DNA of 64,000 bases from sequence record OP352608; one strand, 5' to 3'. Positions 5,654 to 37,282 of the stretch are shown here, one piece after another. The stretch comes from Escherichia phage vB_EcoM_SP13. Made by a program: the position numbers and the translations under genes. The notes under the pieces are model-generated. The model ran no database searches. It was not told where the DNA came from and worked only from the letters and a program-made list of their open reading frames with translations. Within the stretch, counting starts at the first letter, position 1; each line of letters begins with the position of its first letter.

Positions 5654-7963
5654 TTATTTTGCTGATTTCAGCGCGGCTATCTCTGCCTTGAGTTCACCTA
5701 TCTGATCCATGAGTGCAAGAATAGCCTCGTGGTGCAATGCCGCTGCCACTCCGTAAGTGTCGACTGATTTGACATCCTTGACCACGGTCCCATCAGCCAG
5801 TTCCATATCACCTGAAACAGAAACGGCTTCTGGGAAATCAACCTCAACATCTTGAGCCACGAATCCAAAACCTACTTTCGCGCCGTCAGTTTTCAATCGC
5901 CATGACACGCCATTAATCCTTTTCATCTTGGTCAATGGGTCTTGAATCTTGACAATCTCATCCTTGATTCTGACGTCTGAAGAAGTACCCCAACCGCCAG
6001 CGCAAACAGCATTACCTGCTTGCAGGAATTGGAAATACTTGTTGGTGCCTACACCGCCAGCAGTAGTGGTCATTATGGTCACATCGCCATTACGCTCAGA
6101 ATATACCCGACCATACGTTGCTGTGTTGGCACTGTTCTTAAAATCGATGAACGATTGGTTGTTGGTGTTTCCAATGAACGTCGCTTGACCGCCGCGAGTT
6201 ATCAACTGGCCTTTTGCATCAACGTTCCCAGAGCTGGTGATCAAGTTATTTGGCACAAGCAAGTTGCCGTTGTCGACAAAATCGAATGCCTGGCTGGCGG
6301 CAGTCGTCAAATTGGTAACGGTCAATCGCATGTAATAAGCGCCACCGATAACAGCGCGAATGCGCATGCGACCTTCAGCCTCAACAGCAGTCCCCACTCG
6401 ATACTCCGACATGACGCTGCCGCCGTCAGCGGTCGTGCCTGGACCTGGCATTGCCGTATCGCCGTTTATAACAGACCATTGCGTATTCGCCGCTGTGAAT
6501 CCACCGGATGCACGAATCACCCAAACGCCTGAAAAGTTGCGCGGCAATACTTCATCTGTTGCAAGGTTGTTACGACCGTAAGCTGGGCTTGAGTTAGAAG
6601 CTCTTAGCGCAACGCTTCCCAAAGAGTTCGCACCAGAACTTAAAAGCGAAACACCTCTTACATATCGCGGAATGGTGAATCCTTCTCCATTGATGAATGC
6701 GCCGCCAGCACCTGCGACAACCGTTCCTGATGCTGGTTCACTTGCAGGGCCGGACCCGTGGAAGTTGATGTTGCCAGTGATGTTTGGCAGGAAGGATTCC
6801 ATTATCATTCCGTCATTTGACGAGTTGCCGCCATCGCCACGGGCAAAAAGTGCACGAACACTTCCTGTCTGAACGCCGTTACGGTCTGGAACACGGAATG
6901 TTGTTGTTCCGTTGCCTAAAGAATACTTTCCGCGCTTCAGCGGGTCAGCCAACCAATCTGCATCAGCAATAGGCGTAAGCATTTGCGCATAAGCCCAAAG
7001 CTCAGGCCAGTCTGCACGGTTAAGCAATTGTCCGTCGGCAACAACTTCATACGACTGAATATAGGCGCGACTGTCGCGCAGGTGAAAGTCACCAACGCCA
7101 TAGTTCATTACGCCGTTCATGCTTGGGCCAACGGTGCCAGTATTTACTAAGTTCTCAACCCAACGCTTCGTCGCGGCATCATAATCATTGACGGGGTCGC
7201 CAGCCAGTGGTGTTGAGCCTTGTGGACGAATATTCAACCATGCTTGCGCATTGTCTGCTGATCCTGTGCCGCCCATGGAAGTTGGAACGATGCTCTGATC
7301 AGCAACAGGGCCAAATCCAAAGGCATCTTTCATTCCCTGAATAGTCGTTTGACCTGTGCCGCCGTTTGCAATTGGAATTGTGCTTTGTGAACTATAAATT
7401 TGCGCCCAAGGCGACCATGAAGATGTTTCAGCATTGTACCTTCTTTGGTACAAGTTATTTGAGTTGAATGTGGTGTATCTTTGAATGCAACTTTCCAAAG
7501 ATATGGCAGTCTGCAGGACTTCCAATATCCCAGCTTCCAAGGCTACTGGATAGTTGAGGGATGTCTGCGCAGCAGCATTTGAATATTGGTAATATTGCCC
7601 AAACCAAGTTCCAGTCAAAGAGTTCAGATTTATCCCCGACGGCAAAAGTCCAAAATTCCTGACAGTATTGGTCAAAGATGCGGCAGTTGTTCGAATGGAA
7701 AGCATGTCGCCTGCCGCCCATGCGCGCGCTGCAGTTCCTTCCTGTGCACGCTGCACAGTCAGGACGTTCCCAACCACGGCTGTTACAGTGATGATTTCAA
7801 ATTGGAGGCCTGTTGCAGCGTCGACGATTGTCGCCACTACACGCTCGTTTGCACCCAAGGTCGGAAAGCCCGACCCTGAGCGGATTGTGATTGTGGTGTC
7901 TGAAGTCGTCGCTGGCTGAGCGAGCGCGACCTCAAAGTTGTTTTTGAATATTAGCCTTGGCAT
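5654..7963 (-). CDS. tail fibre/tailspike protein with C-terminal self-cleaving intramolecular chaperone domain (peptidase S74-like)
   Basis: N-terminal TITIRSGSGF...VTAVVGNVLTVQRAQEGT fibre-anchor-like segment; Gly/Ser/Thr-rich repetitive body; C-terminal GGWGTSSDVRIKDEI ... FGFVAQDVE ... LKAEIAALK pattern as in endosialidase-type chaperone domains; CGAGGA RBS. Confidence 0.75.
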   Translation of the reverse strand: MPRLIFKNNFEVALAQPATTSDTTITIRSGSGFPTLGANERVVATIVDAATGLQFEIITVTAVVGNVLTVQRAQEGTAARAWAAGDMLSIRTTAASLTNTVRNFGLLPSGINLNSLTGTWFGQYYQYSNAAAQTSLNYPVALEAGILEVLQTAISLESCIQRYTTFNSNNLYQRRYNAETSSWSPWAQIYSSQSTIPIANGGTGQTTIQGMKDAFGFGPVADQSIVPTSMGGTGSADNAQAWLNIRPQGSTPLAGDPVNDYDAATKRWVENLVNTGTVGPSMNGVMNYGVGDFHLRDSRAYIQSYEVVADGQLLNRADWPELWAYAQMLTPIADADWLADPLKRGKYSLGNGTTTFRVPDRNGVQTGSVRALFARGDGGNSSNDGMIMESFLPNITGNINFHGSGPASEPASGTVVAGAGGAFINGEGFTIPRYVRGVSLLSSGANSLGSVALRASNSSPAYGRNNLATDEVLPRNFSGVWVIRASGGFTAANTQWSVINGDTAMPGPGTTADGGSVMSEYRVGTAVEAEGRMRIRAVIGGAYYMRLTVTNLTTAASQAFDFVDNGNLLVPNNLITSSGNVDAKGQLITRGGQATFIGNTNNQSFIDFKNSANTATYGRVYSERNGDVTIMTTTAGGVGTNKYFQFLQAGNAVCAGGWGTSSDVRIKDEIVKIQDPLTKMKRINGVSWRLKTDGAKVGFGFVAQDVEVDFPEAVSVSGDMELADGTVVKDVKSVDTYGVAAALHHEAILALMDQIGELKAEIAALKSAK

Positions 7964-8001
7964 TTTACGGTCCTCGTTTTGTCGACAACCGTATTATAAC
8001 C

Positions 8002-9378: not shown

Positions 9379-10839
9379 ATGAATAAAATATTAACACATA
9401 ATTGGAAATTCATGTACCAGTTGAATCCTGCTTTAAAAGAAGTCTGGAAGACAAAAGCGCGATACAAAGTAATATACGGCGGTCGTGCATCTTCCAAATC
9501 GCACGATGCCGCTGGTTTTGCTATTTATTTGGCGGCAAACTTCAAATTAAAATTCCTTTGCGTTCGACAATTCCAGAACAAAATTTCTGAATCTGTATAT
9601 ACTCTATTAAAAGACAAAATAGAGATTTCTGATTTCAAAGATGAGTTCAATTTATTAAAGAACTCTATTGAACATAAAAGAACTAAATCTGAATTTCTAT
9701 TTTACGGTATCGCACGTAACGTTGATGAAATTAAATCAACAGAAGGTGTTGACGTCCTTTGGCTGGAAGAAGCGCACGCGCTTACTGAAGAACAGTGGGA
9801 CATTATTGAGCCGACAATCCGTAAAGAAGGGTCCGAAATATGGATCATCTTTAACCCCGATGAAGAGGCCGATTTTGTCTACCAAAACTTTGTTATGCGA
9901 CCGCCGAAGAATGCCATTGTTAAAAAGATAAACTGGCAAGACAATCCATTTTTGTCGCAAACGATGCTGGACGTTATTGCAGGCATGTACGAGCGCGACC
10001 CGAAAAAGGCAGAGCACGTTTATGGCGGCGTGCCGAAGACTGGCGGCGATAAATCTGTAATCAACCGCGCATTCGTTAAGGCCGCGCTTAATCTCCACAA
10101 ACACCCTACGCTGGGATGGAGTTTGTCAGGGTCTAACCGTATAGGCTTTGACGTAGCGGACGATGGCGACGACCTTAACGCCACTGCATTCGTTACAGGA
10201 AACGTATTGCGCGGCATCAAGACATGGGAAGGTCTGGAAGATGAATTGTTAAAATCGGCAAGCGGAGTTTGGAAAGATGCGCTTACATTTGGCGCTTCTA
10301 TAACTTATGACGCCATCGGTGTCGGCGCTTTTGCTGGTTCAAAATTTGATGAACTGAACGAGTATGCAATACATGAAAATCCATCATTTCCAAGAATCGA
10401 ATTTAATGCGTTCAATGCGCAAGGGTCTGTTGATGATCCTGATGACGTTTTTCTTGAATTACCACACGTTGAAATACTCAATAAAGACCATTTCGCAAAC
10501 ATAAAAGCGCAAAAGTGGACTGAAATTGCAGAGAGATTCAGAAAGACATACGAATATGCAACTGGGCAAGCCGTATATCCGACTGATGAGTTGATTTCAA
10601 TCGACACCGATGGCATACCAGAACTTGGAATTCCAGCTTGGACTACTGAAGAGATTGAGACGTTTCTTTTTGAGATGTCAGCGCCGCGCAAAGATACGTC
10701 TGTTCTTGGCAAGTTCAAAGTTGAATCTAAAAAGGATATGGCAAAGCGTGGAGTCAAATCACCTAACAAAGCGGACGCGGCAATCATGGCATTAATGAAA
10801 CCAATCGTTGCAGCATCCGGCTTCTTCTCTAACCTTTAA
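9379..10839 (+). CDS. terminase large subunit
   Basis: N-terminal deviant P-loop RYKVIYGGRASSKSH typical of large terminases, acidic nuclease-type C-terminal half, position upstream of the portal; alternative start at 9412. Confidence 0.85.
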   Translation: MNKILTHNWKFMYQLNPALKEVWKTKARYKVIYGGRASSKSHDAAGFAIYLAANFKLKFLCVRQFQNKISESVYTLLKDKIEISDFKDEFNLLKNSIEHKRTKSEFLFYGIARNVDEIKSTEGVDVLWLEEAHALTEEQWDIIEPTIRKEGSEIWIIFNPDEEADFVYQNFVMRPPKNAIVKKINWQDNPFLSQTMLDVIAGMYERDPKKAEHVYGGVPKTGGDKSVINRAFVKAALNLHKHPTLGWSLSGSNRIGFDVADDGDDLNATAFVTGNVLRGIKTWEGLEDELLKSASGVWKDALTFGASITYDAIGVGAFAGSKFDELNEYAIHENPSFPRIEFNAFNAQGSVDDPDDVFLELPHVEILNKDHFANIKAQKWTEIAERFRKTYEYATGQAVYPTDELISIDTDGIPELGIPAWTTEEIETFLFEMSAPRKDTSVLGKFKVESKKDMAKRGVKSPNKADAAIMALMKPIVAASGFFSNL

Positions 10840-11619: not shown

Positions 11620-11657
11620 ATAGATTGATTCCCTTTCACTGTCAGGTGGCGTTAACA

Positions 11658-14033
11658 ATGAAAATTCTTGGCATAAAACTCTGGGAGAAGACGCGACCAG
11701 AAGCCGAACCAGCGGAGATGCCGCCAGGCGACCCATTGGCACCGTTTGAACGCCTTGAAAGGCGCGGCAGCGGTCAACGCTGGGAAAAGACTGAAAGCAA
11801 TCGACCGACCTTTAAAACGGTTGATGACTTCCCTTTATATGAGCCTGATATTAACGGGGACGGTGTTGCAATCATCAAAGGTCGCTCAGTAGATTCAGCA
11901 ACCGTATCCAAAAAAGTTATGGATAATGCCTTAAAGAACATCAGTTCAGAAGGGCAGGTGAATCCATACACAGTGCCTATTCAGTTGCAAAACTGGTACT
12001 TATCGCAATCATTTATCGGATATCAAGCTTGCGCCATCATCGCGCAGCACTGGCTAGTGAACAAGGCTTGTTCCATGGTAGGCCGCGATGCGGTCCGTAA
12101 AGGCTGGGAAGTCAAATCCAGTTCTGAGTCGGAATTGTCAGTACAGGCCAGCGAACGCTTAAAGCAAATTGATAAAGAATTTAACATCAAAGAGCACTTA
12201 GTTGAAGCCGAACGATTCAAGAATATTTTTGGCATCCGCGTCATCATATTTGATGTGCGCAGTGATGACCCAGAATATTATAGCAAACCTTTTAACATCG
12301 ATGGTGTGACAAAAGGGTCTTATAAGGGAATCATTCAGGTTGACCCTTATTGGATGATGCCATTCTTGACGTCTGAAAACACTGCAGACCCTGCGTCACA
12401 GCATTTCTATGATCCAGAATACTGGGTGATCAGCGGACAGCGTTATCATCGCAGCCACCTAATCATCTTGCGCAACGATGAGCCAGCTGATATTCTCAAG
12501 CCGACTTATATCTACGGCGGCATTCCTCTGACTCAGCAGATTTATGAACGTATCTATGCCGCTGAACGTACCGCTAACGAAGCGCCATTGCTGGCGATGT
12601 CTAAGCGTACAACCACGCTTCGGACCGACGTTGACAAGGCGATTGCCAATGAGCGGTCGTTTGCCGAACGTCTGATGATGTGGATTAAGTACCGCGACAA
12701 CTATGCAGTCAAAGTGCTTGGTCAGAAAGAAGAGATGGACCAGTTCGACATCAACTTGTCAGACTTCGACAGCATCATCATGAACCAGTACCAGCTGGTG
12801 GCCGCAATCGCAAAAGTTCCGTCGACAAAACTGTTAGGGACGTCACCTAAAGGCTTTAACGCCACTGGTGAGTTCGAAATGGTCAGCTATCACGAAGAAT
12901 TGGAGACTTGTCAACAGCACGATTTGACGAAGATTCTTGACCGCCACTATAAAATCCTTTTGAAGTCTGAAGGCGTGGAAGTCGACGTTAAAGTGGCATG
13001 GGAGCCAGTTGGTTCACTTACTGCTACTCAGCTTGCAGAGATTAACGACAAACGAGCGAATACTGGCAAGACTCTCATTGATGCTGGCGTAATCTCCCCT
13101 GATGAAGAGCGCGACCGCATCAAGGACGACAAAAACAGCGGCTACAACCGTTTGCCGGAAGATGCAGCAGAAGAAACCCCAGGGATGTCTCCAGAGAATA
13201 TGGCACTGCTTGGCAAGTCTGCTGGTGAAGTTCTGCAAGGCAAGGCCGATATTGAACAGGCCAAAGCTGATGTTGTCAAGATGGGCGGCCAGTTCTATAG
13301 CGAGACTGGTATTATGCCGGAAGGTGCCGCGCGTGGTGAGTTGGCGGAAAACCCTGACAGGGCACCAGTTGAGATTAACATGGATGATACCGATGACGAA
13401 TCAAGCCATCACGTTGATGTCCTAACGCAACTGAAAGAAGGTCTGGAGGGTATTGCTGACTATTACCTTAAAGAAGGTCAGGACGTGGATTTTGACCCTC
13501 AAAAAGATGCAAGGTCGGTGCAACCGTCTACGCTTCCAAGCGTAAAAGGAAATGTCGTGAACTTGCGACACAATGTAGGGAAGATGGATGCTGCATCGCT
13601 GCCTAAGATGAAGTTGCACGGGATGATTCTTGGTATTGAGAATCCTCGCAACAGCATTCGCAGGGGTAACAGCCTTGATGGTGAATGGGCAGTTAAGATG
13701 CCGCACCATTACGGATTTATCAAAGGCACCAAGGGCGCTGATGGTGATGAAGTCGACTGCTTTGTTGGACCAAACATGAAGTCGCCTAAAGTATTCATCA
13801 TTAACCAAAATGATAATTATTCTGGCGAATTTGATGAACACAAGTGTATGCTTGGATTTGATTCAGCAGAAGAAGCGAAAGAAGCTTATCAGGCGTCATT
13901 TGGTAACGGTTGGAACGGATTTGACTCAATCCACGAATTGGATGTAAACTCATTCAAGGAGTGGTTGAAGGGTGATTGCTCTCAAGCATATGGAGCACTC
14001 AACAATCCTACTAATTCACCGAAGCAAGGTTGA
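11658..14033 (+). CDS. portal protein (with extended C-terminal region)
   Basis: ORF trimmed to ATG 11658 after AGGTGG RBS; size and position between terminase and head-morphogenesis gene; no portal motif verified. Confidence 0.65.
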   Translation: MKILGIKLWEKTRPEAEPAEMPPGDPLAPFERLERRGSGQRWEKTESNRPTFKTVDDFPLYEPDINGDGVAIIKGRSVDSATVSKKVMDNALKNISSEGQVNPYTVPIQLQNWYLSQSFIGYQACAIIAQHWLVNKACSMVGRDAVRKGWEVKSSSESELSVQASERLKQIDKEFNIKEHLVEAERFKNIFGIRVIIFDVRSDDPEYYSKPFNIDGVTKGSYKGIIQVDPYWMMPFLTSENTADPASQHFYDPEYWVISGQRYHRSHLIILRNDEPADILKPTYIYGGIPLTQQIYERIYAAERTANEAPLLAMSKRTTTLRTDVDKAIANERSFAERLMMWIKYRDNYAVKVLGQKEEMDQFDINLSDFDSIIMNQYQLVAAIAKVPSTKLLGTSPKGFNATGEFEMVSYHEELETCQQHDLTKILDRHYKILLKSEGVEVDVKVAWEPVGSLTATQLAEINDKRANTGKTLIDAGVISPDEERDRIKDDKNSGYNRLPEDAAEETPGMSPENMALLGKSAGEVLQGKADIEQAKADVVKMGGQFYSETGIMPEGAARGELAENPDRAPVEINMDDTDDESSHHVDVLTQLKEGLEGIADYYLKEGQDVDFDPQKDARSVQPSTLPSVKGNVVNLRHNVGKMDAASLPKMKLHGMILGIENPRNSIRRGNSLDGEWAVKMPHHYGFIKGTKGADGDEVDCFVGPNMKSPKVFIINQNDNYSGEFDEHKCMLGFDSAEEAKEAYQASFGNGWNGFDSIHELDVNSFKEWLKGDCSQAYGALNNPTNSPKQG

Positions 14034-14034
14034 T

Positions 14035-14886
14035 ATGGCTTTTAAAGCTTCGAAAAAACGTGAACGCCGCTCACCCGATAGAATCGGGCGCGGCAGTCCG
14101 ATAATCCCATCCAACGCAATCGCGATGGCCTATCGTCGTGAGATGAAAGGTCTTTGCTATGCGATGATTGACGACTATCAAGAAGGAATTGCTGAGTGGC
14201 TTGAAAAGAAGCAGGTGAAAAAATTCTTTGCGCAAGACTCTGCTGATTCAACTTTTCAAACCTTGATGAAGCGACTGCAACTGAAATGGGCAAAAGCTTT
14301 CGCCCGTGTCGGGTCAAAGATTGCCGCAGATTTCATCAAGTCAGTTGAAAAGGGTGCCACTTCTGCTACATTTGCAAGTCTTAAATCTGCAGGAATAGAA
14401 GCGCCAAAAGCCACATATAATAAATTCGTTGAGAACACTCTTAAAACAAGCGAGACGTTCAACACGACTTTAGTGACTAAGGTTGGCGAGGATATTCACA
14501 ACAGGGTGTACGAAGCGGTGATGCTTTCGCTGACTTCGCCAGACCCAGCGCAACAAGGCACGTCCGGTATTCAGGCGGCATTAAGGAATGTAAAACACTT
14601 CTCTGCAAAGCGCGTAGACCTTATTGCAAAAGACCAAACGAGCAAACTTTATTGCGTATTAAGTGATGAAAGGATGCGACAGAATGGAGTCGAGGAATTT
14701 GAGTGGGCGCATTCAGGAGCAGGCAAAGAGCCGCGAATATCGCATGAGCATGTCGATGGAATGAGATTCAAGCTTGATGACAAACGCTTATGGGAAGTAG
14801 GTGGAGAACTTAAGTTCAAAAAGGGTGACATCGGTCCTCCTGGATGGGCGATACACTGCAAGTGCAGGAAAATACCAATTATCTGA
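14035..14886 (+). CDS. head morphogenesis protein (Mu F / SPP1 gp7-like minor head protein)
   Basis: C-terminal HEHVDG ... HCKCR pattern as in Mu F-like proteins; immediately after the portal. Confidence 0.65.
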   Translation: MAFKASKKRERRSPDRIGRGSPIIPSNAIAMAYRREMKGLCYAMIDDYQEGIAEWLEKKQVKKFFAQDSADSTFQTLMKRLQLKWAKAFARVGSKIAADFIKSVEKGATSATFASLKSAGIEAPKATYNKFVENTLKTSETFNTTLVTKVGEDIHNRVYEAVMLSLTSPDPAQQGTSGIQAALRNVKHFSAKRVDLIAKDQTSKLYCVLSDERMRQNGVEEFEWAHSGAGKEPRISHEHVDGMRFKLDDKRLWEVGGELKFKKGDIGPPGWAIHCKCRKIPII

Positions 14887-14893
14887 GGTCATT

Positions 14894-15814
14894 ATGACGA
14901 TACCAATCAACACATTCCCTCTATCTGGACAAACTCCAGTCTTGCCTGCGGTGTATGCTAATGGCTTGGCAATTGTCTCAGAATTCACTTCTGATAAAAA
15001 CTTGATTGTTCCACTGAGCCCGCCGCTTTCATCAGGGTATAACTCAGTAGGCCAGTTCTTTATGATTGGCAATGATGGCGATTCGACCAGCAAGCCTAAT
15101 CTGACATTGTCTGTACCTAAGATGAACATCACCGACGTTCAAACTGGCTTGACTGCATCAACAATCACCATTGCTTTTGGAGAAGCAGTGATTATAGGAA
15201 TGGAGTCTGGAGGGTCCAAGAATGCTGTCGCCGTTAAGGTAGTCAAATCCAGCGACAACCAATACACTTTACCAGCTGCGACGGCTTCCGTTCTCGGCGG
15301 CGTCAAAATAGGAAGCGGAATAAGCGTCGCAGGTGACGGTACAATTAGCGTAACTCAATACTCATTGCCGATTGCGTCAGCATCTACTTTAGGCGGCGTA
15401 AAGGTCGGTACAACTCTATCAATTGATGGTTCCGGTGTGCTTAACGCAGCAGCAAGCACCGTCCAGAATGCCACGAACAGTGTTAGCAATCCTCCAACCA
15501 CTTTGGTTAATCTGGCAACCTTAAACCTTCCTGCAGGAAAGTGGCTTGTGACGGCAAGCCAATTGACCGTTGCAACTGCAGGCATTCAAGCGAATACCGG
15601 AATCACTGTAAAATTATCAACAAGCAATTCAGATATTACGGATGATGCATTTACCATGTCAGCGGGTATTCGGGCTTCAGGACGTTTTGGCGGTAACGTC
15701 CCAACAAAAATGATTACTCTTGCCGCGCCTGGTAATGTGTATCTAAACTATCAGTGCACCGATGCGTTAACATCTACCGTTTACGGACAGATCACCGCAA
15801 TTAAGCTGAACTAA
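14894..15814 (+). CDS. virion protein with phage-fibre-type repeats (head fibre or decoration candidate)
   Basis: Two copies of LP-x-A-(S/T)-AS-x-LGGVK-(I/V)-G; Ser/Thr/Gly/Asn-rich composition; GAGGT RBS. Confidence 0.5.
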   Translation: MTIPINTFPLSGQTPVLPAVYANGLAIVSEFTSDKNLIVPLSPPLSSGYNSVGQFFMIGNDGDSTSKPNLTLSVPKMNITDVQTGLTASTITIAFGEAVIIGMESGGSKNAVAVKVVKSSDNQYTLPAATASVLGGVKIGSGISVAGDGTISVTQYSLPIASASTLGGVKVGTTLSIDGSGVLNAAASTVQNATNSVSNPPTTLVNLATLNLPAGKWLVTASQLTVATAGIQANTGITVKLSTSNSDITDDAFTMSAGIRASGRFGGNVPTKMITLAAPGNVYLNYQCTDALTSTVYGQITAIKLN

Positions 15815-15824
15815 AGAGGAAGTT

Positions 15825-15962
15825 ATGCAAAAGATTATTCAGTCACGTTATGTTAAAGTGCGAAATATTAATTGCAACTCTTTGCTTTCTTGGAAATGGG
15901 CTGTTTATGACTCGATGTTGATTGGCGTTTTAGTGGCAGGAGTGCTATTTAATATTCACTGA
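15825..15962 (+). CDS. 45-aa peptide with C-terminal hydrophobic helix
   Basis: Not in the ORF track (under 60 aa); strong AAGAGGA RBS 5 nt before the ATG; MLIGVLVAGVLF segment. Confidence 0.4.
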   Translation: MQKIIQSRYVKVRNINCNSLLSWKWAVYDSMLIGVLVAGVLFNIH

Positions 15963-16004
15963 ATTCATCGGCAAAGGATTGCCGCGAGTTTTATACGTAT
16001 AATG

Positions 16005-16270
16005 ACGTATCATCCGTATCAAGTAAGTTGTTGTTTTCAAAAGAATCTTACGGATGATACGGATGATACGCGTTGCCGCCGTACTATATAGGAATTCAAA
16101 TAAATTAATTTAAAATTATATATCTAATTTAATTTTATTTTTTTATAAACTCTTATATATATGAAAAGTATCCGTATCATCCGTATCATCCGTAGCACAC
16201 CAGTGATAGCGCGGCTTATACACCGATACGGATAAAAATACGCCTCATTTTATCCGTATCATCCGTATCA
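16005..16270. repeat. Iteron cluster (9-bp unit ATCCGTATC, direct and inverted) flanking an 85-bp AT-rich tract; candidate origin of replication or other protein-binding locus
   Basis: 16005-16020 direct; 16049-16072 inverted 2.5 units; 16081-16165 almost pure A+T; 16169-16194 direct 2.8 units; 16224-16233 inverted; 16251-16270 direct 2.2 units. Confidence 0.7.
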
Positions 16271-16385
16271 CACTAATAAAGGCGCGGCTATATCGGTTGT
16301 TATACATATTCAAACCATAATTATTGTTTGCCTAAGTTTTTTTCATTAGATATAATACACAATACTTATTTGAGGGTGGATGCGA

Positions 16386-17801
16386 ATGCAAACGGCACGC
16401 GAAATTGACAAAAATGGATTCTTGACGATTATGGGTTGTCCGATTTCGTCATTTGGCATTTTTGATTATTCTGCTGGTCAAGTTGGTCTTGATGGTGATC
16501 CGAATCGCATCGTAAAAGTCTATCGCCCTGAGTCAGCGGTGAAAGACCCCGAAGCGATAGATTCATTCAAAAATATCCCTTTCATCGACAATCACGAAAT
16601 GCTTTCTGGATTTGAAGGTGATGAGGATAACACAGCACCCGAAGAGTATGGCGTTGATGGCGTTCTGACTGGCAATGTTTATTATGACAAGCCATGGATG
16701 CGCGGCGACCTTAAAGTGTTTAGCCGTCGTCTGAAGAAGGCCATTGATTCTGGAAAGGTTGACTTGTCTTTGGGCTATGACTGTGAATTCATCATACAGT
16801 CTGGAGAGTTTGACGGGCAGCCGTATGAAGTGGTGCAGACAACTCTTCGCGGCAACCACATTGCTCTCGTGGACGTTGGTCGAGTACCAGGTGCACGGGT
16901 GCTGGATGGTCGTTGCTTTGACCATCTTTGTTTGACGACTGTAACACCATCCAACGAGGATTTAGACATGCCAAAACCGTTAAAAGGTAAAGCGCGTGAT
17001 AATGCTGTTGAACAGCTGAAATCACTGATCCCTGCGCTCGAACAATTTCTGAACGAAGAGAGTACTGAAGCTGCTCATCAGGACGAAGTTGAAGTGAAAG
17101 CAGAAGAGAAGGACTCAACCGAAAATCGTGAAGAAGTAATGGTTGATCCAGAAGTCAAGGCAGAAGCAGAAGAAACCCCAGAAGGTGAAGAGAAGTTTGA
17201 AGTTGAAACTGAATCTCACGCTGGCGGCGAACTTCCGCAATTGATCAGCCAAATCGAAGCACTTATTGCAAAACTGAAAGGTGGCGCGGTAGGTGATGAA
17301 GAAGAAGTTGAAGCCGAAGTCAAAGACGAAGAAGAAGTTGAAGTCAAGGCTGAAGATGTATCACCTTGCGACAAAGCTGAAGATGTGGTTAGCGGCCTGC
17401 AAAACAGCAACGTAAAGGGGGCTTCGGTCGAAAAAGATGACAAACCGACAAAAGCGGCGAAAGCGTCGCCAGGTCCAGCAAAAGGGGAACACTCAATGGC
17501 ATCTGATTCAGCAGTTGCTGCTTTCTACGCTGATTCTGCTCGTAAGAATAGCCTCTACCAGCGCCTGTCTAAAGTTGTTGGTGCCTTTGATCATGCAACT
17601 ATGGACTCCAAGTCCGTAGCGAAATATGGCGCTAAAAAGTTAGGCTTGAAGTGCGTTGATGGTGCTGAGTTTGACGTGGTGGATAATTATCTGCGCGGCG
17701 TTGAGCACGGTCAGAAACAGCGTGTAGTCGCAAAACAAAAGGCCGCTGCGGATTCTGCAGCAACTGACGAAGCATTTGAAGCTTGGTTGAAAGGGGAATA
17801 A
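16386..17801 (+). CDS. capsid scaffolding-like protein (N-terminal domain of unknown function plus acidic coiled-coil-like region)
   Basis: Position before the capsid gene; Glu/Lys/Ala-rich central third with EEVEVK-type repeats; start moved to ATG 16386 after GAGGGTGG. Confidence 0.5.
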   Translation: MQTAREIDKNGFLTIMGCPISSFGIFDYSAGQVGLDGDPNRIVKVYRPESAVKDPEAIDSFKNIPFIDNHEMLSGFEGDEDNTAPEEYGVDGVLTGNVYYDKPWMRGDLKVFSRRLKKAIDSGKVDLSLGYDCEFIIQSGEFDGQPYEVVQTTLRGNHIALVDVGRVPGARVLDGRCFDHLCLTTVTPSNEDLDMPKPLKGKARDNAVEQLKSLIPALEQFLNEESTEAAHQDEVEVKAEEKDSTENREEVMVDPEVKAEAEETPEGEEKFEVETESHAGGELPQLISQIEALIAKLKGGAVGDEEEVEAEVKDEEEVEVKAEDVSPCDKAEDVVSGLQNSNVKGASVEKDDKPTKAAKASPGPAKGEHSMASDSAVAAFYADSARKNSLYQRLSKVVGAFDHATMDSKSVAKYGAKKLGLKCVDGAEFDVVDNYLRGVEHGQKQRVVAKQKAAADSAATDEAFEAWLKGE

Positions 17802-17803
17802 AC

Positions 17804-18421
17804 ATGACTTTCCAAACTAGTGTAGGCCGTCAATATACAACTGGCTTTCCTGGCGACATCGTTCGCGACGGCCCACAGCGTGGGAAGCCAGGCCGAATCG
17901 TTAGCGCCAACGACGGTGCAAACGTAAACGCCATCAGCCGTGTGTTTGGTTTTAAGGCTGACGTGTCATTAATGGGTACTGGCCAGACCAAAACCTTGGG
18001 CGCGCAGGACTTTGAAGTTGAACTGGGCGGCACCAATTACTATGGCATCCTTGGCAACAGCAAGCGTTACGCTCTGTATGGCAACTCTACTGGTCCTTTG
18101 GGTGCCAGCATGGTTCTGCCTCAATATAGCGAAGGCGAGTTCTACGATATGTGCACGGGCCTCGTAGTTGAAGTGTTCAACCCAAGCACCAGTCCGCAGA
18201 CGCTGAACTACGGCGACCTGCTCGCTTATGTACCTAAAGGCATTTCCAGCGGTAACAACCCGAACAACTTGCCTATCGGTGCAATTATCGCCTATACTGG
18301 CTCACTGCCAACTGGCATGGTTGCCATTCCAGGCGGTATCGTGATTGACCCGACTGCTATTGCCCTTTCCGGCCCAAGCGTCCAGTCTTCCACTTATACC
18401 ATTGTACAATTGACTCGTTAA
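17804..18421 (+). CDS. hypothetical head protein
   Basis: ORF trimmed to ATG 17804 with AAAGGGGA RBS; Gly/Thr-rich; between scaffold and major capsid genes. Confidence 0.5.
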   Translation: MTFQTSVGRQYTTGFPGDIVRDGPQRGKPGRIVSANDGANVNAISRVFGFKADVSLMGTGQTKTLGAQDFEVELGGTNYYGILGNSKRYALYGNSTGPLGASMVLPQYSEGEFYDMCTGLVVEVFNPSTSPQTLNYGDLLAYVPKGISSGNNPNNLPIGAIIAYTGSLPTGMVAIPGGIVIDPTAIALSGPSVQSSTYTIVQLTR

Positions 18422-18435
18422 TAGGCAGGTGAATA

Positions 18436-19575
18436 ATGACTCGCATTAGCCAAACACACTCTCGCCTCCCAGCGAGCAAGGTGCGCCCTTTTGATATGCA
18501 ATCTGTTACCGACGCGGCTGTTTCCCAGCTTGCTCGTATCGGTATTGTGTTTGATTCCGCGATTGTGCGTGATCAGATTGAGCACTTAAACCGTGCAGGC
18601 GCTTTCCGCGTAGGTGACGCCGCGTTCACTGCACCGCAGACTACTCCGTCAATCCCGACCCCGCTGCAGTTCCTGCAGCAGTGGCTGCCTGGCTTCGTCA
18701 AAATCATGACCGCTGCTCGTAAAATCGACGAGCTGGTTGGTATTGATACCGTTGGTCAGTGGGAAGATGCAGAAATCGTTCAGGGTATCGTTGAACCAGC
18801 TGGCACCGCAGTTGAATATGGTGATTTCACCTCTATTCCTCTGGCAAGCTGGAACGTAAACTTTGAACGTCGTTCTATCGTTCGTGGCGAAATGGGCATG
18901 GCAGTTGGTATGCTGGAAGAAGGCCGCGCGTCTGCTATGCGTCTGAACTCCGCAGAAACCAAGCGCCAGCAGGCTGCTGTATCTCTGGAAATCATGCGTA
19001 ACGCAATCGGCTTCTATGGCTGGTACAACGGGAACAACCGCACATTCGGCTTCCTGAATGATCCAAACCTGCCAGCGGCGATGACTTCCAACACCACTTC
19101 CGGCTGGGCTACTGCGACTTTCCAACAGGTAACTGCAGACATCCGTTTGATGGTTCGTCAAATTCGTGTGAACTCTCAGGACCAGATTGATCCAGAGAAA
19201 GTTGACATGACTCTGGCGCTGCCGACTAACTCTATCGATTGGCTGTCCAACACCACTGACTTCGGTATTTCTGTACGTGACTGGATCACCCAGACCTATC
19301 CGAAGATGAAGATCAAATCTGCACCGGAACTCAACGGCGCACTTGGCAGTGACCCGACTTTCTTGAACGTGGCATACCTGTACGCTGATCACATCGATTC
19401 CTCAATCGATGGTTCAAGCGATGATGGTTCCGTATTCAGTCAGCTGGTTCAAACCAAGTTCATGACTCTGGGCGTTGAAAAGCGTGCTAAGAGCTACGTT
19501 GAAGACTACGCAAACGCAACAGCAGGCGTTCTGCTCAAGCGTCCGTTCGCAGTCGTCCGTATGACTGGCATTTAA
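18436..19575 (+). CDS. major capsid protein
   Basis: 379 aa; AGGTGA RBS; codon usage biased toward CGT/CTG/GGT/AAC as in highly expressed genes; followed by a strong hairpin; no capsid motif verified. Confidence 0.7.
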
Positions 19576-32748: not shown

Positions 32749-35487
32749 ATGCAAAAGTTTGACACAAACCTGTTGCAAAACCTTAAGTGGATGCAGAACA
32801 ATGCGCCAAACATTACATCTTTGGTGCAAAAGAAAAGTGACTGGTATGAAAGATACCAAGATCAGTTTTGGACTGACTGGTACAATAACATTTTTAACAT
32901 TGACACTTGTGATGCAATGGGCATTTATATTTGGTGCGACATTCTTTGCATACCAAGAGACTTTGTGGACTTAAGCAATTATGAGCACAACTGGGCGTTT
33001 GGACCGACGCGCGACAACTTTGAAGGTGCGGACAACATCGGCGGCAACTTCTTTGGTGCTGGCGGGAAGGTTGTAAAGAATATCGAAGAAGCGCGCATAC
33101 TTCTTAAGCTTCGTTATCTGACGCTTACAAGTGATGGCCGCATCGAAAGTATCAATCGCATGCTTAAGTGGATTTTCAACCGTGGAGAGGCTTGGGATTA
33201 CTCTTCATCACGCTACGCATATGTGACCGACAATACTCAAGGCGCAGTGTCTTCGTCTGAATCAACCAATGGCTCATTCCTTCTGTACGACTGGCAAGGG
33301 TCAACTGAGATTCAGCACGATTATAAGCAGATACTTTTAAGCCATGGCAACAACGCCGGACTGACCATCAGCGGAGTATCAGGCACCGTGTCACGGATGG
33401 CGCATCCAGATTGGTACTCATGGGGGAATGGCTCCGGCACAGGTCTTGTCGGCGGCGACACCAGACAGTATGGCGGCCCTGATTACTATGGACAGTTGTG
33501 TGGTGATTACCCAGGCGAGGCCATAGAGAATTTTGCCAACGCAGTAAGGGTAGTCAAGACTGCTTCAAGCGGTGAGCCTGTGTATTCTTTGGCAGATAAT
33601 CCAAGCGCCCAATCCATTGCGCTTCCTTCGCAGGCTGGCGTTAACGTTTGTTATAGCTTCTACATAAAGGTGCTTTCTGAAAATGTCGCTTCTGTTTCGG
33701 TTACAGAGAATAGTGATGCATCTAGTAATGGAAAGTTGTTTGACCCAGTCACTGGGCAGTTCAACTTGGACCCGTATTTGAGCTATTTCATCACAGGCAA
33801 ATTCGATGGAGTAAGAAGGGAATCAAGCCGTGGTGGCATCAAAGCAATCGGCGGCGATTGGTATCGAATCTGGATTGTAGAGCAGACGGCAACCGCTGCG
33901 TCTGGAGTAAGTACCAGCTTTTCAATAGAGTTGAAGGCGACTGCCGCTGGATCAACTCAAACTCGTGAATTGCCTGAAGGGTCTGATGCACTTCTTTTTG
34001 GATACTCGATTTGCGTCTGCGACCCTGTTCAGAATCCAAATGGACCTGAGCCTTATTTTTATGGAACGCAAAACCCTCCTTCTGACGGAACAGCAATACT
34101 GTCTGTAACGGCGGGAACGCTCAACAACATCTCCTGTGCAAACGGACCGCTGACGACAAGAAACGGTGTGGTTGGCGAGTCATTCATGCAACCTGGCTCA
34201 TCACTTGCATACTCTGGCTCAATCGGCGGCTACCCGTACCCAGGGAACGCCACATTGATTGCAGAGACTGACGGCATCAGACGCTCATGGAACGTTAGCA
34301 GGCTTGATGGAGTACCGCCGCCGCCGACCGCTGACTATTACATGGAATACGTCATCGGACCTTATTTCGCCAACAACCTGTCAGACAACTTTAAGACGCT
34401 AGTTGGCGACAGGGATGAAGGATTCTTGCCAGCAAATGCCGGAATACGCTGGCAGCTTTACCAAGAAGTCGCAGACTTATCTGATATTGATTTGACTGTC
34501 AGCAACATAACAGACACGCGAGTAGGATTTGAAACGGAAGGTGTTGCTTGGATTAACACTGACGGTATCATCAGAGTTGGCGGCATTAACGAGTGGCCGC
34601 TGAACAACTTCAACGGTGTGATACGCCAGCTTGAATCTTTGAAAGGTGTAAACCAGGTCATCGACGGCGCGCTTGTCAACGACTATTCAATCTCAAAAGC
34701 ATCAAGAGATGACTTTGGTCGTGAAATCCCACGTGCCGCAATCACTAACTACTGGAGATACACACAGCCCAATGACGGCACATCTTTTGGCAATATCATT
34801 GAGGATGGCGCAAACACGGTCACAGCGACGCCAATCAGCGGTGTACCCAACCAGTTCCCATCATTCAAGCTTTCCGCTACAATAGGGACTGTGCCAGCGT
34901 CCGGTTATGCACGCGCTGTACTTGCTACTAAATACACTGGCACCCTGACTGGTCCTTTATCATTCATTGCGGTAGTCAAAAACAACACGGTTAACGGTCA
35001 AAAACTTTTTGTAACTGTACCGGATGGGATGGGTGGCTATATCCCTAAATTCTACAACATAGGCGCAGGTGATTTGCAACGTATCGAAATTGACCTTGCC
35101 GCTGAGATTGTTGAAGGCGCTACCTGGGATGGATCAACAGGCGGCATCAGCATCGGTTTGATATCAGGGAAAGACTTGCCGACCGAAGTTGGTACGACTC
35201 TTGAACTTGATATTTTAAGCTTGATGCTTGTGTCTGGTAATACGATGAATGCGCTTGCAATTTCAACAAGCGAAGATTTCGCAAAGAAGACTGCGACTTC
35301 TATATACATCAAAAACCCAGGATCACTTGCCACTGGAGTTCAATTGATTGCTTCTAATGGTGATGTTGTAGCAACAGTAAACTTTCCGAGAAGTGCTGCT
35401 GGTGGTTATGTTTCAAGCATGAACATAACTGACTTAACTGGTGATTGGGCATCAACCCTTTTATCAAAAATTAAATACATCGTGTAG
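32749..35487 (+). CDS. tail fibre / baseplate wedge protein
   Basis: 912 aa; Gly/Ser/Thr/Asn-rich; GAGGAA RBS; synteny. Confidence 0.55.
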   Translation: MQKFDTNLLQNLKWMQNNAPNITSLVQKKSDWYERYQDQFWTDWYNNIFNIDTCDAMGIYIWCDILCIPRDFVDLSNYEHNWAFGPTRDNFEGADNIGGNFFGAGGKVVKNIEEARILLKLRYLTLTSDGRIESINRMLKWIFNRGEAWDYSSSRYAYVTDNTQGAVSSSESTNGSFLLYDWQGSTEIQHDYKQILLSHGNNAGLTISGVSGTVSRMAHPDWYSWGNGSGTGLVGGDTRQYGGPDYYGQLCGDYPGEAIENFANAVRVVKTASSGEPVYSLADNPSAQSIALPSQAGVNVCYSFYIKVLSENVASVSVTENSDASSNGKLFDPVTGQFNLDPYLSYFITGKFDGVRRESSRGGIKAIGGDWYRIWIVEQTATAASGVSTSFSIELKATAAGSTQTRELPEGSDALLFGYSICVCDPVQNPNGPEPYFYGTQNPPSDGTAILSVTAGTLNNISCANGPLTTRNGVVGESFMQPGSSLAYSGSIGGYPYPGNATLIAETDGIRRSWNVSRLDGVPPPPTADYYMEYVIGPYFANNLSDNFKTLVGDRDEGFLPANAGIRWQLYQEVADLSDIDLTVSNITDTRVGFETEGVAWINTDGIIRVGGINEWPLNNFNGVIRQLESLKGVNQVIDGALVNDYSISKASRDDFGREIPRAAITNYWRYTQPNDGTSFGNIIEDGANTVTATPISGVPNQFPSFKLSATIGTVPASGYARAVLATKYTGTLTGPLSFIAVVKNNTVNGQKLFVTVPDGMGGYIPKFYNIGAGDLQRIEIDLAAEIVEGATWDGSTGGISIGLISGKDLPTEVGTTLELDILSLMLVSGNTMNALAISTSEDFAKKTATSIYIKNPGSLATGVQLIASNGDVVATVNFPRSAAGGYVSSMNITDLTGDWASTLLSKIKYIV

Positions 35488-35497
35488 AGGAACGGCA

Positions 35498-37282
35498 ATG
35501 CCAACACTTATTAACAGACCTTTCGCGCAAAGCGGTGATGTATCCGTGGTGCCGGATGCAAGTCCAAGCGGTTATGTGAACTTCCAGCGCGGCTACACCC
35601 CTGACTATGCACTTGCGCTGGAAGCCGGAAACGTCGCCGCGAAAGCAGTTGAACGTGAGTCGATGAACTGGTTGCTGAATCTGATCACCGACAACCTTAT
35701 GTTCATCCAGGACCACGGCGCTCAACAGTATTTCTCGTCTGACTTGAAGCCAGATGGATACCCGAAAAATGCCATCGTTGTCAGCAACTCTGGCACCCCT
35801 TCAGCGCCTGAATGGCGCATTTTCCAGAGTGTGGTAGACGGCAACACCAGCGCAGTCCCAGCTAACGGCGAAACGGAATCTTGGCAGGAATTGACGCTGC
35901 CTAGCGAAGCGAGAAAATATATTCCTATGCCTGCTGGCGGCGATGCGCAAAACCCGTATTTTGTTCGCGGACTGATTTCAAACTTTGTGGACTTTGATAA
36001 TATCACGACTTCCACAACTATTGTCATTCAATCTGATGCCGTTGCCGCTCTCTGCTCTAACATCCCGAACGCGGTTGGTGCGACGAAGGTTGCAGGTCGT
36101 CTCCAGGTTTGCGCTTGGCAGGTTGATGCGCAGACTTTCGCCCTGCAACAATACACGTCAATGAACGGATATGTTTTCACCCGCTCTTATACTTCTGGTG
36201 CTTGGAGTGCTTGGATTCAAAATGCAACTGTTCAAGACGTGCAAATCGGCACGCCGAATCTTGCATCAGGTAAAGGCGCACAAGATATAATCCTTACCGT
36301 TCCGGCAGGTTATGCATGGCCGCCGTCAGCAGGTAGTCGCCTGACAATTGTCAATGATGTAACGACTACCGGACCTGTTACCGTGACCATTGGTGCAAAC
36401 AAAGTTGCAGTCCTTGGATTCGACGGCGGCGAGCTGCCAGCAGGGTCCATCGTCGGTCTTCTTCCTTTTACTATTATTTATGACGGCACCGTTTGGCGTC
36501 TTCTTCAAGCATTCGGCGCGGCGCAAATCGGTGTCGATGCTAGTGAGCCGCAACAGTTTGTTACAAAGCGCCAACTCGATGCTTTGGCTGCGAAATTGAT
36601 AACTATGGGTGATGTATTCGAAGTCGGTGAGACTCGATTCTTGACTAATGGCACTAACCCAAATACTAAACTGGGCGCTTATGGACAGGTTTGGACCAGA
36701 TTGCCTGACAACATGGTCATCAGGACATCTGGCACAGCAAGAAACGGCCTTGCCACTGGCGGCGCGGACTCTGTTACTCTTACCGCCGCCATGCTTCCTC
36801 TGCACAATCACAGCGTGAACATAACTACGCGACAGAGCGGTCCATGGTCCAATACCACTGGAGGCGCAGGCAACCATAACCACACAGGCGATACCAGTCA
36901 AAACGGCGCTCACGTGCACGGAATGGATGCTGCTGGTAATCATCATCACGACAGTGGCTGGGGTGAGGCTTATGCAGACCAGGCTAGATACGGGGTGTAT
37001 GATGGCACGCACAATAACCTTGGAAGTGCAAGGTCTGATTATGACAACTACAAATACAACACCTCGACTAACGGTAGCCACGTCCACAATATTCAATCTT
37101 CTGGGTCACACACCCATGGGTTGAATATAAATTTCGCTGGCAATCACAGCCATAGCTATACCCTTCCCGCTCACACTCACGATGTGGTCGGTAACACTGG
37201 CAATGCAGGGCAGTCCGTCCCAACGGCTGTTTCAACTCTGCCGCGATATGTCGTCTTGAACGGCTGGTACAGAAGCGCATAA
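35498..37282 (+). CDS. tail fibre protein with His-x-His repeat-rich C-terminal tip
   Basis: ORF trimmed to MPTLINRP after GAGGAACGG; C-terminal 150 aa carry many HNH / HxH triplets, reminiscent of metal-binding HxH tips of T4-type fibres. Confidence 0.7.
   Translation: MPTLINRPFAQSGDVSVVPDASPSGYVNFQRGYTPDYALALEAGNVAAKAVERESMNWLLNLITDNLMFIQDHGAQQYFSSDLKPDGYPKNAIVVSNSGTPSAPEWRIFQSVVDGNTSAVPANGETESWQELTLPSEARKYIPMPAGGDAQNPYFVRGLISNFVDFDNITTSTTIVIQSDAVAALCSNIPNAVGATKVAGRLQVCAWQVDAQTFALQQYTSMNGYVFTRSYTSGAWSAWIQNATVQDVQIGTPNLASGKGAQDIILTVPAGYAWPPSAGSRLTIVNDVTTTGPVTVTIGANKVAVLGFDGGELPAGSIVGLLPFTIIYDGTVWRLLQAFGAAQIGVDASEPQQFVTKRQLDALAAKLITMGDVFEVGETRFLTNGTNPNTKLGAYGQVWTRLPDNMVIRTSGTARNGLATGGADSVTLTAAMLPLHNHSVNITTRQSGPWSNTTGGAGNHNHTGDTSQNGAHVHGMDAAGNHHHDSGWGEAYADQARYGVYDGTHNNLGSARSDYDNYKYNTSTNGSHVHNIQSSGSHTHGLNINFAGNHSHSYTLPAHTHDVVGNTGNAGQSVPTAVSTLPRYVVLNGWYRSA

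Follow-up and report, generated by a model that had tools for sequence, protein, structure and literature searches.

A candidate accessory adhesion fibre, perhaps borne on the capsid, encoded in the head gene cluster of Wifcevirus phages

In a 64,000-nucleotide stretch of DNA from Escherichia phage vB_EcoM_SP13 (sequence record OP352608; the whole stretch is hereafter designated the window), an open reading frame (ORF) at 14894–15814 encodes a 306-residue protein (hereafter, the fibre protein), in which an all-beta N-terminal domain, two tandem repeats, and a C-terminal jelly-roll follow one another. The elements of the gene are as follows.

14894–15814, plus strand: fibre gene, 306 residues plus stop (ATG at 14894, TAA at 15812–15814; from the ORF and its translation)
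14885–14889, plus strand: Shine-Dalgarno-like GAGGT, 4 nt before the fibre ATG (read from the sequence, function presumed)
14894–15259, plus strand: N-terminal domain (residues 1–122), all-beta, with a T4 gp10/'XD'-like fold; presumed virion anchor
15260–15355, plus strand: shaft repeat 1 (residues 123–154), QYTLPAATASVLGGVKIGSGISVAGDGTISVT
15356–15451, plus strand: shaft repeat 2 (residues 155–186), QYSLPIASASTLGGVKVGTTLSIDGSGVLNAA
15452–15811, plus strand: C-terminal domain (residues 187–306), eight-stranded TNF/C1q-like jelly-roll knob; presumed distal binding domain

The GAGGT element overlaps the stop codon (14884–14886) of the preceding Mu-F-like head morphogenesis (MuF) gene, which suggests that the fibre protein is translated within the portal-MuF transcription unit. 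A longer alternative frame would begin with GTG at 14801; the ATG start is the one used in the compared orthologues and in the GenBank annotations. In the vB_EcoM_SP13 record, the orthologue (SP13_025; P0126) is annotated with 250 residues, beginning at Met57 of the 306-residue protein, which reflects either a mis-called start or an N-terminal disruption. When the 306-residue product was used in tblastn, matches were obtained in 28 phage genomes, all of Wifcevirus myophages with E. coli or Shigella as hosts, at 95–100% identity (100% to phage F13), and the sole match beyond this genus, in Ralstonia phage phiRSL1, covered the repeat stretch only. The orthologues, among them vBEco4M7_38, AFO10469 (gp36) of ECML-117, and Bas99_0006, are variously named in GenBank 'head fiber protein', 'tail fiber protein', 'tail protein', 'tail connector protein', and 'hypothetical protein', and all of these conflicting names, which should serve as a warning for annotation, derive from one 16-residue motif. 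According to the BASEL paper, Wifcevirus is distantly related to Pbunavirus (E217, PB1) and has two tail fibres, gp32 and the T-shaped gp114 in Bas99; Bas99_0006 is not discussed in it. The gene is thus already annotated and its product has been detected by proteomics, yet it is uncharacterised.

The proteomic detection was made by Necel et al. (PMC7048862), who subjected CsCl-purified vB_Eco4M-7 and ECML-117 to liquid chromatography–tandem mass spectrometry. The orthologue at the corresponding position, vB_Eco4M-7_38 (30.9 kDa), has 96.4% identity to the fibre protein; it was identified from 8 peptides at 72.9% coverage, and its score of 3354 ranked third among 33 proteins. Its ECML-117 counterpart, gp36, was identified with 3 peptides and 15.7% coverage (PMC7048862). 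Presence in virions, for which the preliminary description of this DNA had proposed proteomics, is hence borne out in purified particles of two Wifcevirus phages, and the protein matches no non-structural family. The same samples also contained non-structural proteins, e.g. a DNA helicase, a glyoxalase-family protein, and TolA-like proteins (PMC7048862), which weighs against a virion assignment, so that the mass spectrometric detection constitutes strong evidence and not proof. These co-detected proteins would be in line with the view that the fibre protein is no stable virion component, i.e. a late protein that co-purifies with the particles and whose fibre-like features serve another role. 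Such a view is hardly credible, however, in light of the high coverage and score rank in CsCl-banded particles, the repeated detection in a second phage, and the presence of three modules that are all typical of virion fibres.

The two repeats are tandem 32-residue units with 16 of 32 positions identical, and both fit the pattern LPxA(S/T)ASxLGGVK(I/V)G that had been recognised in the preliminary description. The LGGVK motif was found in no other six-frame ORF of at least 60 residues in the window (359 ORFs). The search against fibre profiles that had been recommended there gave a match to the Pfam family PF11133 (Phage_head_fibr) of 28.4 bits, above the gathering score of 24.6 (E = 1.4e-6), and one to phrog_9625 (E = 1.4e-14); in addition, 944 database proteins match the fibre protein at E <= 1e-3, mostly via the repeat stretch. 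The uniqueness in the window, the two profile matches, and the database matches together indicate that the repeats are more than a chance resemblance. The PF11133 alignment covers residues 108–147 of the fibre protein and only positions 213–252 of the 277 in the profile, namely, the motif, so that the name 'head fibre' taken from this family reflects the motif only. In an alignment with the only full-length relatives, P0001 (97% identity) and three metagenomic phage proteins (51–56%), the three modules are evident, and the number of repeats varies (2, 2, 3, and about 4–5), which is typical of a modular fibre shaft.

To see what the motif marks in solved structures, a profile built from 46 repeat units was searched against 177,635 PDB sequences. 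Only three sequences were significant, and they belong to two families only: phi29 gp8.5 (6qvk/3qc7; E = 5.5e-7 and 9.4e-7), in which PYSLPAATTTTLGGVKKG lies at residues 231–254, and the crAss001 head fibre gp21 (7qof_l; E = 1e-5), with the motif PYVLPAATTSTIGGVK. The next PDB match had E = 1.1, and there was no significant match in any solved tail fibre. Both gp8.5 and gp21 are capsid fibres located by cryo-electron microscopy. Moreover, a metagenomic tectivirus protein (P0090) joins the vertex-anchor domain of PRD1 P5 (PF08948) to the same LGGVK repeats and a beta knob. Thus, every carrier of the LGGVK motif whose place in the virion is known or strongly implied is attached to a capsid.

The likeness to these capsid fibres is, nevertheless, confined to parts of the molecules. 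phi29 gp8.5 (PF11133; PDB 3QC7, 6QVK, 6QYY) is encoded in a head cluster, as is the Wifcevirus fibre, and shares the PY(S/T)LPAAT...LGGVK motif, once at residues 231–254 compared with twice in the Wifcevirus fibre. It forms a dispensable trimer that has been proposed to aid in attaching to host surface polymers. Its base (residues 1–110), consisting of two small beta-barrels of the beta-tulip type that bind the Ig-like domain in phi29's major capsid protein (MCP), is absent from the Wifcevirus fibre, whose N-terminal domain differs in fold; its helix-turn-helix supercoiled three-stranded shaft is also absent, no stretch of the fibre protein aligning to the supercoil part of the profile, and gp8.5 in turn has no TNF-like knob. 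In crAss001 gp21 (PDB 7QOF), the motif PYVLPAATTSTIGGVK opens the distal domain (residues 42–97), which is homologous to residues 226–280 of gp8.5; the PYxLPxAT(x)3LGGVK motif of this tip domain is found in two copies in the Wifcevirus fibre. gp21 is a trimer bound to those hexons of a T=9 capsid that lie on three-fold axes, and the relatives of Wifcevirus have T=9 capsids as well; with only 97 residues, a 38-residue N-terminal peptide anchor, and a single motif copy, it lacks XD-like and TNF-like domains. As for PRD1 P5 (PDB 1YQ5, 1YQ8), its anchor domain PF08948 has no Pfam match in the Wifcevirus fibre, and the PRD1 lineage differs in being membrane-containing with a double-jelly-roll capsid.

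The N-terminal domain was modelled with a predicted local distance difference test score (pLDDT) of 86, and the predicted structure shows an XD-like beta-sandwich fold; residues L17, P18, Y21, N23, and G24 are invariant. Neither Pfam nor PHROG gave a match on residues 1–107. An exhaustive phmmer search of 1.84 billion representatives retrieved only Wifcevirus-like orthologues and one further protein (P0070), so that the sequence of this domain appears confined to the Wifcevirus-like lineage; two other candidates, P0121 and P0122, were rejected as spurious because they are low-complexity tandem-repeat proteins. No paralogue of the domain was found among the ORFs of the window, and it shows no sequence likeness to either tail fibre of the phage. 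The XD-type fold is known from TSP4-N of CBA120 (7REJ/7RFV) and from gp9 and the proximal long tail fibre of KP1 (9F4A), with which the domain shares only 4–16% identity, and by sequence the Wifcevirus fibre has no match to the XD/gp10 family of the CBA120 TSP2/TSP4 type. These XD domains belong to tail or baseplate assemblies, whereas the Wifcevirus gene lies in the head cluster. P0070 (182 residues; at 8001–8549 of contig L006) has the same N-terminal domain and two LGGVK repeats without a knob, and its gene, in another phage with a portal fused to an InPase domain, is found directly upstream of TerL and not after MuF.

The C-terminal domain, modelled with a pLDDT of 75, has in the predicted structure the TNF topology of a jelly-roll with 8–10 strands, as in the knob fibres PRD1 P5, Pa223 gp52, and those of the BclA type. 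There is no helix of four or more residues in the model of either terminal domain, and the other 64 residues are two beta-type motif units. When the C-terminal domain was searched alone and as a five-sequence alignment against a collection of 5.8 billion proteins, no match was returned, not even to the known relatives P0001–P0004, which the full-length query had retrieved and which a local phmmer search matched at 1e-35 to 1e-72. These empty searches are therefore false negatives, as is to be reckoned with when such a query is short and of biased composition, and the wider spread of the knob is not to be judged from them; in tblastn of 50,697 phage genomes, the knob was found in Wifcevirus only. 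Homology with the beta knob of the tectivirus protein P0090 was also considered, but the pairwise match is marginal (E = 0.001 over 48 residues), and the resemblance is kept as an analogy.

In its overall build, the fibre protein resembles the capsid spike gp52 of phage Pa223 (PDB 9NY6), in which an attachment part, a beta prism, and a TNF knob stand on a capsid and which has been proposed as an adsorption aid. Pa223, however, is a podophage whose T=7 capsid has no cement protein, and its gp52 gene is placed among ejection and tail genes; gp52 also lacks LGGVK shaft repeats and has no detectable sequence similarity to the Wifcevirus fibre. Each module of the fibre protein is thus of a known kind, and it is the combination and the lineage that are new. 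From the folds only, we infer that the protein is homotrimeric.

A natural mutation bears on the function of the knob. In the re-sequenced working stock of vB_Eco4M-7 (PP596836), the authors list 'vBEco4M7_38 AC->C frameshift Thr209fs'. This is a 1-nt deletion that converts ...LA-T209... to LAP-stop at about position 14602 of PP596836.1 (codon 209 in the window, about 15518–15520), and owing to it two ORFs are annotated in PP596836. The frameshift removes the knob, and the truncated product would retain the N-terminal domain. Since the stock forms plaques, has been rebooted synthetically, and is strictly dependent on the O157 antigen, the knob is dispensable in the laboratory, and in its dispensability the Wifcevirus fibre resembles the head fibres of phi29. 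The same mutant bears on the orientation of the protein. If the polarity were reversed, a trimer of the C-terminal jelly-roll would rest on the capsid as a cement does, and the XD-like N-terminal domain would be exposed as a possibly glycan-binding tip. This we judge very improbable: in phi29 gp8.5, crAss001 gp21, Pa223 gp52, and PRD1 P5 it is the N-terminus that anchors; the C-terminal domain is the more variable part; P0070 keeps the N-terminal domain and the repeats without the knob; and the knob-less Thr209fs phage is viable.

Among the 28 genomes, the hosts of which include O157, O16 (K-12), and Shigella, the N-terminal domain is 96–100% identical and the knob 92.6–100%, whereas the T-shaped tail fibre is only 56–73% identical and is shared with T5-like and other phages. 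The fibre protein, conserved across hosts while the T-shaped fibre varies, is not a host-range determinant, to judge from these comparisons. In addition, the baseplate docking site of the E217 gp46 type is occupied by a conserved 613-residue fibre. The 36 variable sites among 15 close variants are distributed as 9 in the N-terminal domain, 8 in the repeats, and 19 in the knob, which is about twice as variable as the anchor and the most variable part within the genus. Compared with two distant relatives, the fibre protein is the fastest-evolving member of the head cluster, with 56% identity against 70–90% for its neighbours, an evolutionary pattern that looks like that of a surface-exposed protein. 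The distal two-thirds of the T-shaped fibre are common to T5-like, G7C-like, and other phages, and this sharing points to horizontal exchange of receptor-binding domains.

The surroundings of the fibre gene contain the following features.

5654–7963, minus strand: T-shaped tail fibre, with a C-terminal S74 intramolecular chaperone (PF13884)
9379–10839: TerL
11625–14033, plus strand: portal fused to an InPase domain (PF06381 and PF18823)
Ending at 14886: MuF gene
15825–15962, plus strand: small transmembrane ORF of 45 residues, MQKIIQSRYVKVRNINCNSLLSWKWAVYDSMLIGVLVAGVLFNIH, with a hydrophobic C-terminal segment
15969–15984, plus strand: terminator-like hairpin followed by a T-rich tail (from a consensus scan only)
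16006–16270, within the gap 15963–16379, both orientations: 9-mer repeat array with at least 11 copies of ATCCGTATC / GATACGGAT
16380–17801: DUF2213 protease/scaffold
17783–18421: E217-gp24-like cement gene (PF22758, 34 bits; phrog_3645, E = 2.6e-63)
18436–19575: MCP gene
32749–35487, plus strand: DUF2612 baseplate protein of 912 residues, homologue of the E217 triplex subunit gp45
35441–37282: 613-residue fibre with a docking module of the E217 gp46 type

As described previously, the gene is located between the head-morphogenesis gene, which extends to 14886, and the scaffold gene, which begins at 16380; it does not directly precede the iteron locus as had been stated, because the 45-residue transmembrane ORF and the terminator-like hairpin intervene. 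The order portal, MuF, fibre, (gap), protease/scaffold, cement, and MCP is kept in two distant Wifcevirus-like contigs. At the position of the fibre gene, E217 and Burkholderia phage BCSR52 have, respectively, a 68-residue and a 49-residue ORF, together with a 46-residue transmembrane ORF. No similarity to the fibre protein was detected in E217 gp21 or gp22 or in their BCSR52 counterparts, which were examined for a fibre remnant. Because these small ORFs are unrelated to it, the fibre gene is taken as a lineage-specific acquisition at the junction of MuF and the protease.

The vicinity of the portal and MuF genes, the short trimeric fibre architecture, and the name 'tail connector protein' in some GenBank records would also suit a neck or collar whisker placed around the head-tail joint as a positional analogue of T4 fibritin. 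We regard this as improbable: the 'tail connector' name has no supporting match to a Pfam or PHROG family, the protein has no coiled coil and no fold match to fibritin or collar proteins, and the E217 neck, whose genes are conserved one-to-one, has been fully modelled without such a component.

Collectively, we favour the reading, with about an even chance of its being correct, that the gene encodes an accessory, probably trimeric adhesion fibre of the Wifcevirus virion, built of an anchor at the N-terminus, a short shaft, and a distal TNF-like knob, and that this fibre is probably capsid-borne. The capsid is favoured because the motif carriers with a known place are capsid-attached, the gene lies in the head cluster, Pa223 gp52 provides a precedent, and the protein is conserved, dispensable, and independent of host range. 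Of the roles entertained in the preliminary description (a head fibre, a decoration protein, or a misplaced short tail fibre), a virion fibre with a phage-fibre motif is upheld. A decoration protein of the cement type is not, the fibre protein having no PF22758 match and no beta-tulip fold and a separate E217-gp24-like cement being encoded at 17783–18421; between head and tail, the sequence does not decide. The more specific proposal of a capsid-borne adhesin in a contractile-tailed phage with an E217-like T=9 capsid, in which an XD-type domain docks on the cement-coated capsid and a TNF-like knob is carried on a shaft with the phi29/crAss001 tip motif, is advanced tentatively, with somewhat less than an even chance.

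Beyond the trimeric state, we infer that the N-terminus anchors the protein, that it sits on the capsid, and that it binds glycans. Presumably, the fibre would be a homotrimer about 10 nm long, anchored to the particle through the gp10/XD-like beta domain (residues 1–122), with the two 32-residue LPxA(S/T)xxxLGGVKxG units forming a short beta-structured shaft and the TNF/C1q-like jelly-roll (residues 187–306) a distal knob. The E217-type capsid has T=9 geometry and 180 cement trimers; since such a capsid is covered by the cement trimers, the free sites would be the hexon centres or the tops of the cement trimers, and it is from either of these that the fibre may project. The knob could then bind, weakly and reversibly, to conserved glycans on surfaces of the host or its surroundings, so that the true receptor-binding tail fibres would be more likely to reach the O-antigen. 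Adhesion of this sort has been proposed for phi29 gp8.5, crAss001 gp21, T4 Hoc, and the Pa223 capsid spike.

Besides the non-structural proteins in the mass spectrometry samples, several points weigh against a capsid location. The folds closest to the N-terminal domain are the attachment domains of tailspikes, tail fibres, and baseplate proteins, and none of the folds with which known decoration proteins bind capsids was found, the beta-tulip, Ig, and OB folds being absent. Compared with their E217 counterparts, MCP and cement carry no additional domain that could be taken for a docking site. Many carriers of the LGGVK motif with no assigned place in the virion are annotated as tail fibres, and the dispensability of the knob suits accessory tail fibres equally well. 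The published descriptions of Wifcevirus that were consulted do not mention head fibres, though a spike of 10 nm could easily escape notice in negative stain. The T-shaped tail fibre gene (5654–7963, minus strand) is also situated outside the tail module, which makes gene position weak evidence for a head location. Finally, the DUF2612 baseplate protein has 912 residues compared with 504 in E217 gp45, and its extension of about 400 residues could, from its length, offer extra docking sites for fibres.

Several of these points are at the same time in favour of the main rival, a baseplate-attached fibre, which is to be taken seriously since it is in tail assemblies that the anchor fold is best documented. 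The protein would then be an accessory short tail or side fibre, the XD/gp10-like domain of which docks the trimer on the baseplate periphery (e.g. on the 400-residue DUF2612 extension) or on the N-terminal part of another fibre, giving a branched receptor-binding complex as in CBA120 or G7C, with the knob as a secondary, dispensable adhesin. Apart from the T-shaped fibre, which shows that fibre genes occur outside the tail module in Wifcevirus, and the enlarged DUF2612 protein, this arrangement is in keeping with the named BFVD matches, which are mostly tail fibres and receptor-binding proteins, including a tail fibre of the related phage BCSR52. The frameshift loss in a laboratory stock also recalls the Stf side fibres of phage lambda. 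We nevertheless consider it somewhat unlikely, as no other ORF of the window, the two tail fibres included, resembles the N-terminal domain in sequence, no solved tail fibre was significantly matched by the motif, and the fibre gene is inside the portal-to-MCP cluster in all relatives. The mass spectrometry scores of vB_Eco4M-7, expressed per kDa, point roughly in the same direction: the value for the fibre (108) is close to that of the cement (104) and about sevenfold those of the sheath (16) and the 613-residue fibre (14), with 22 for MCP. This ratio is a weak proxy for copy number, partly contradicted by the equally high value of the T-shaped tail fibre (89) and by a different ranking in ECML-117.

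If the capsid-borne reading holds, the Pbunavirus-Wifcevirus lineage would gain its first head fibre, one attachment fold (gp10/XD) would serve both head and tail, and the 'LGGVK' units would be the mark of a capsid-fibre module of pan-viral occurrence, shared by podophages, crassviruses, tectiviruses, and myophages. Were the capsid location confirmed, both head fibres and the gp10/XD attachment fold would be known to be more widely distributed. Wifcevirus phages, whose relatives include therapeutic Pbunavirus phages, are candidate agents for controlling and detecting E. coli O157. A fibre that is conserved, surface-exposed, and dispensable would be a natural site for display or reporter fusions, and it might help to determine how fast the phage adsorbs or how it is retained on mucus and on other surfaces, apart from host range.

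Some further observations concern the neighbouring genes. The C-terminal inorganic-pyrophosphatase-like domain of the portal protein (residues 660–782) matches PF18823 (InPase) with E = 4.4e-46, and the same fusion is present in the related contigs L004–L006. The DUF2612 gene (vBEco4M7_62) was called 'highly mutated' between stocks in the re-sequencing study. The 45-residue ORF is annotated in several Wifcevirus records and occupies the place of the 46-residue E217 gp22, which also has a hydrophobic segment, the two having no sequence similarity. The terminator-like hairpin that follows it may close the portal-MuF-fibre transcription unit. At the position of the 9-mer array, non-coding gaps are present in E217 (513 bp) and BCSR52 (417 bp). 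A promoter-like TTGCCT-17-TATAAT at 16328–16356 is found after the array, upstream of the protease/scaffold gene. The 9-mers are partly arranged as tandem pairs and flank an AT-rich core at about 16085–16165, and the array could be a regulator-binding array or an origin.

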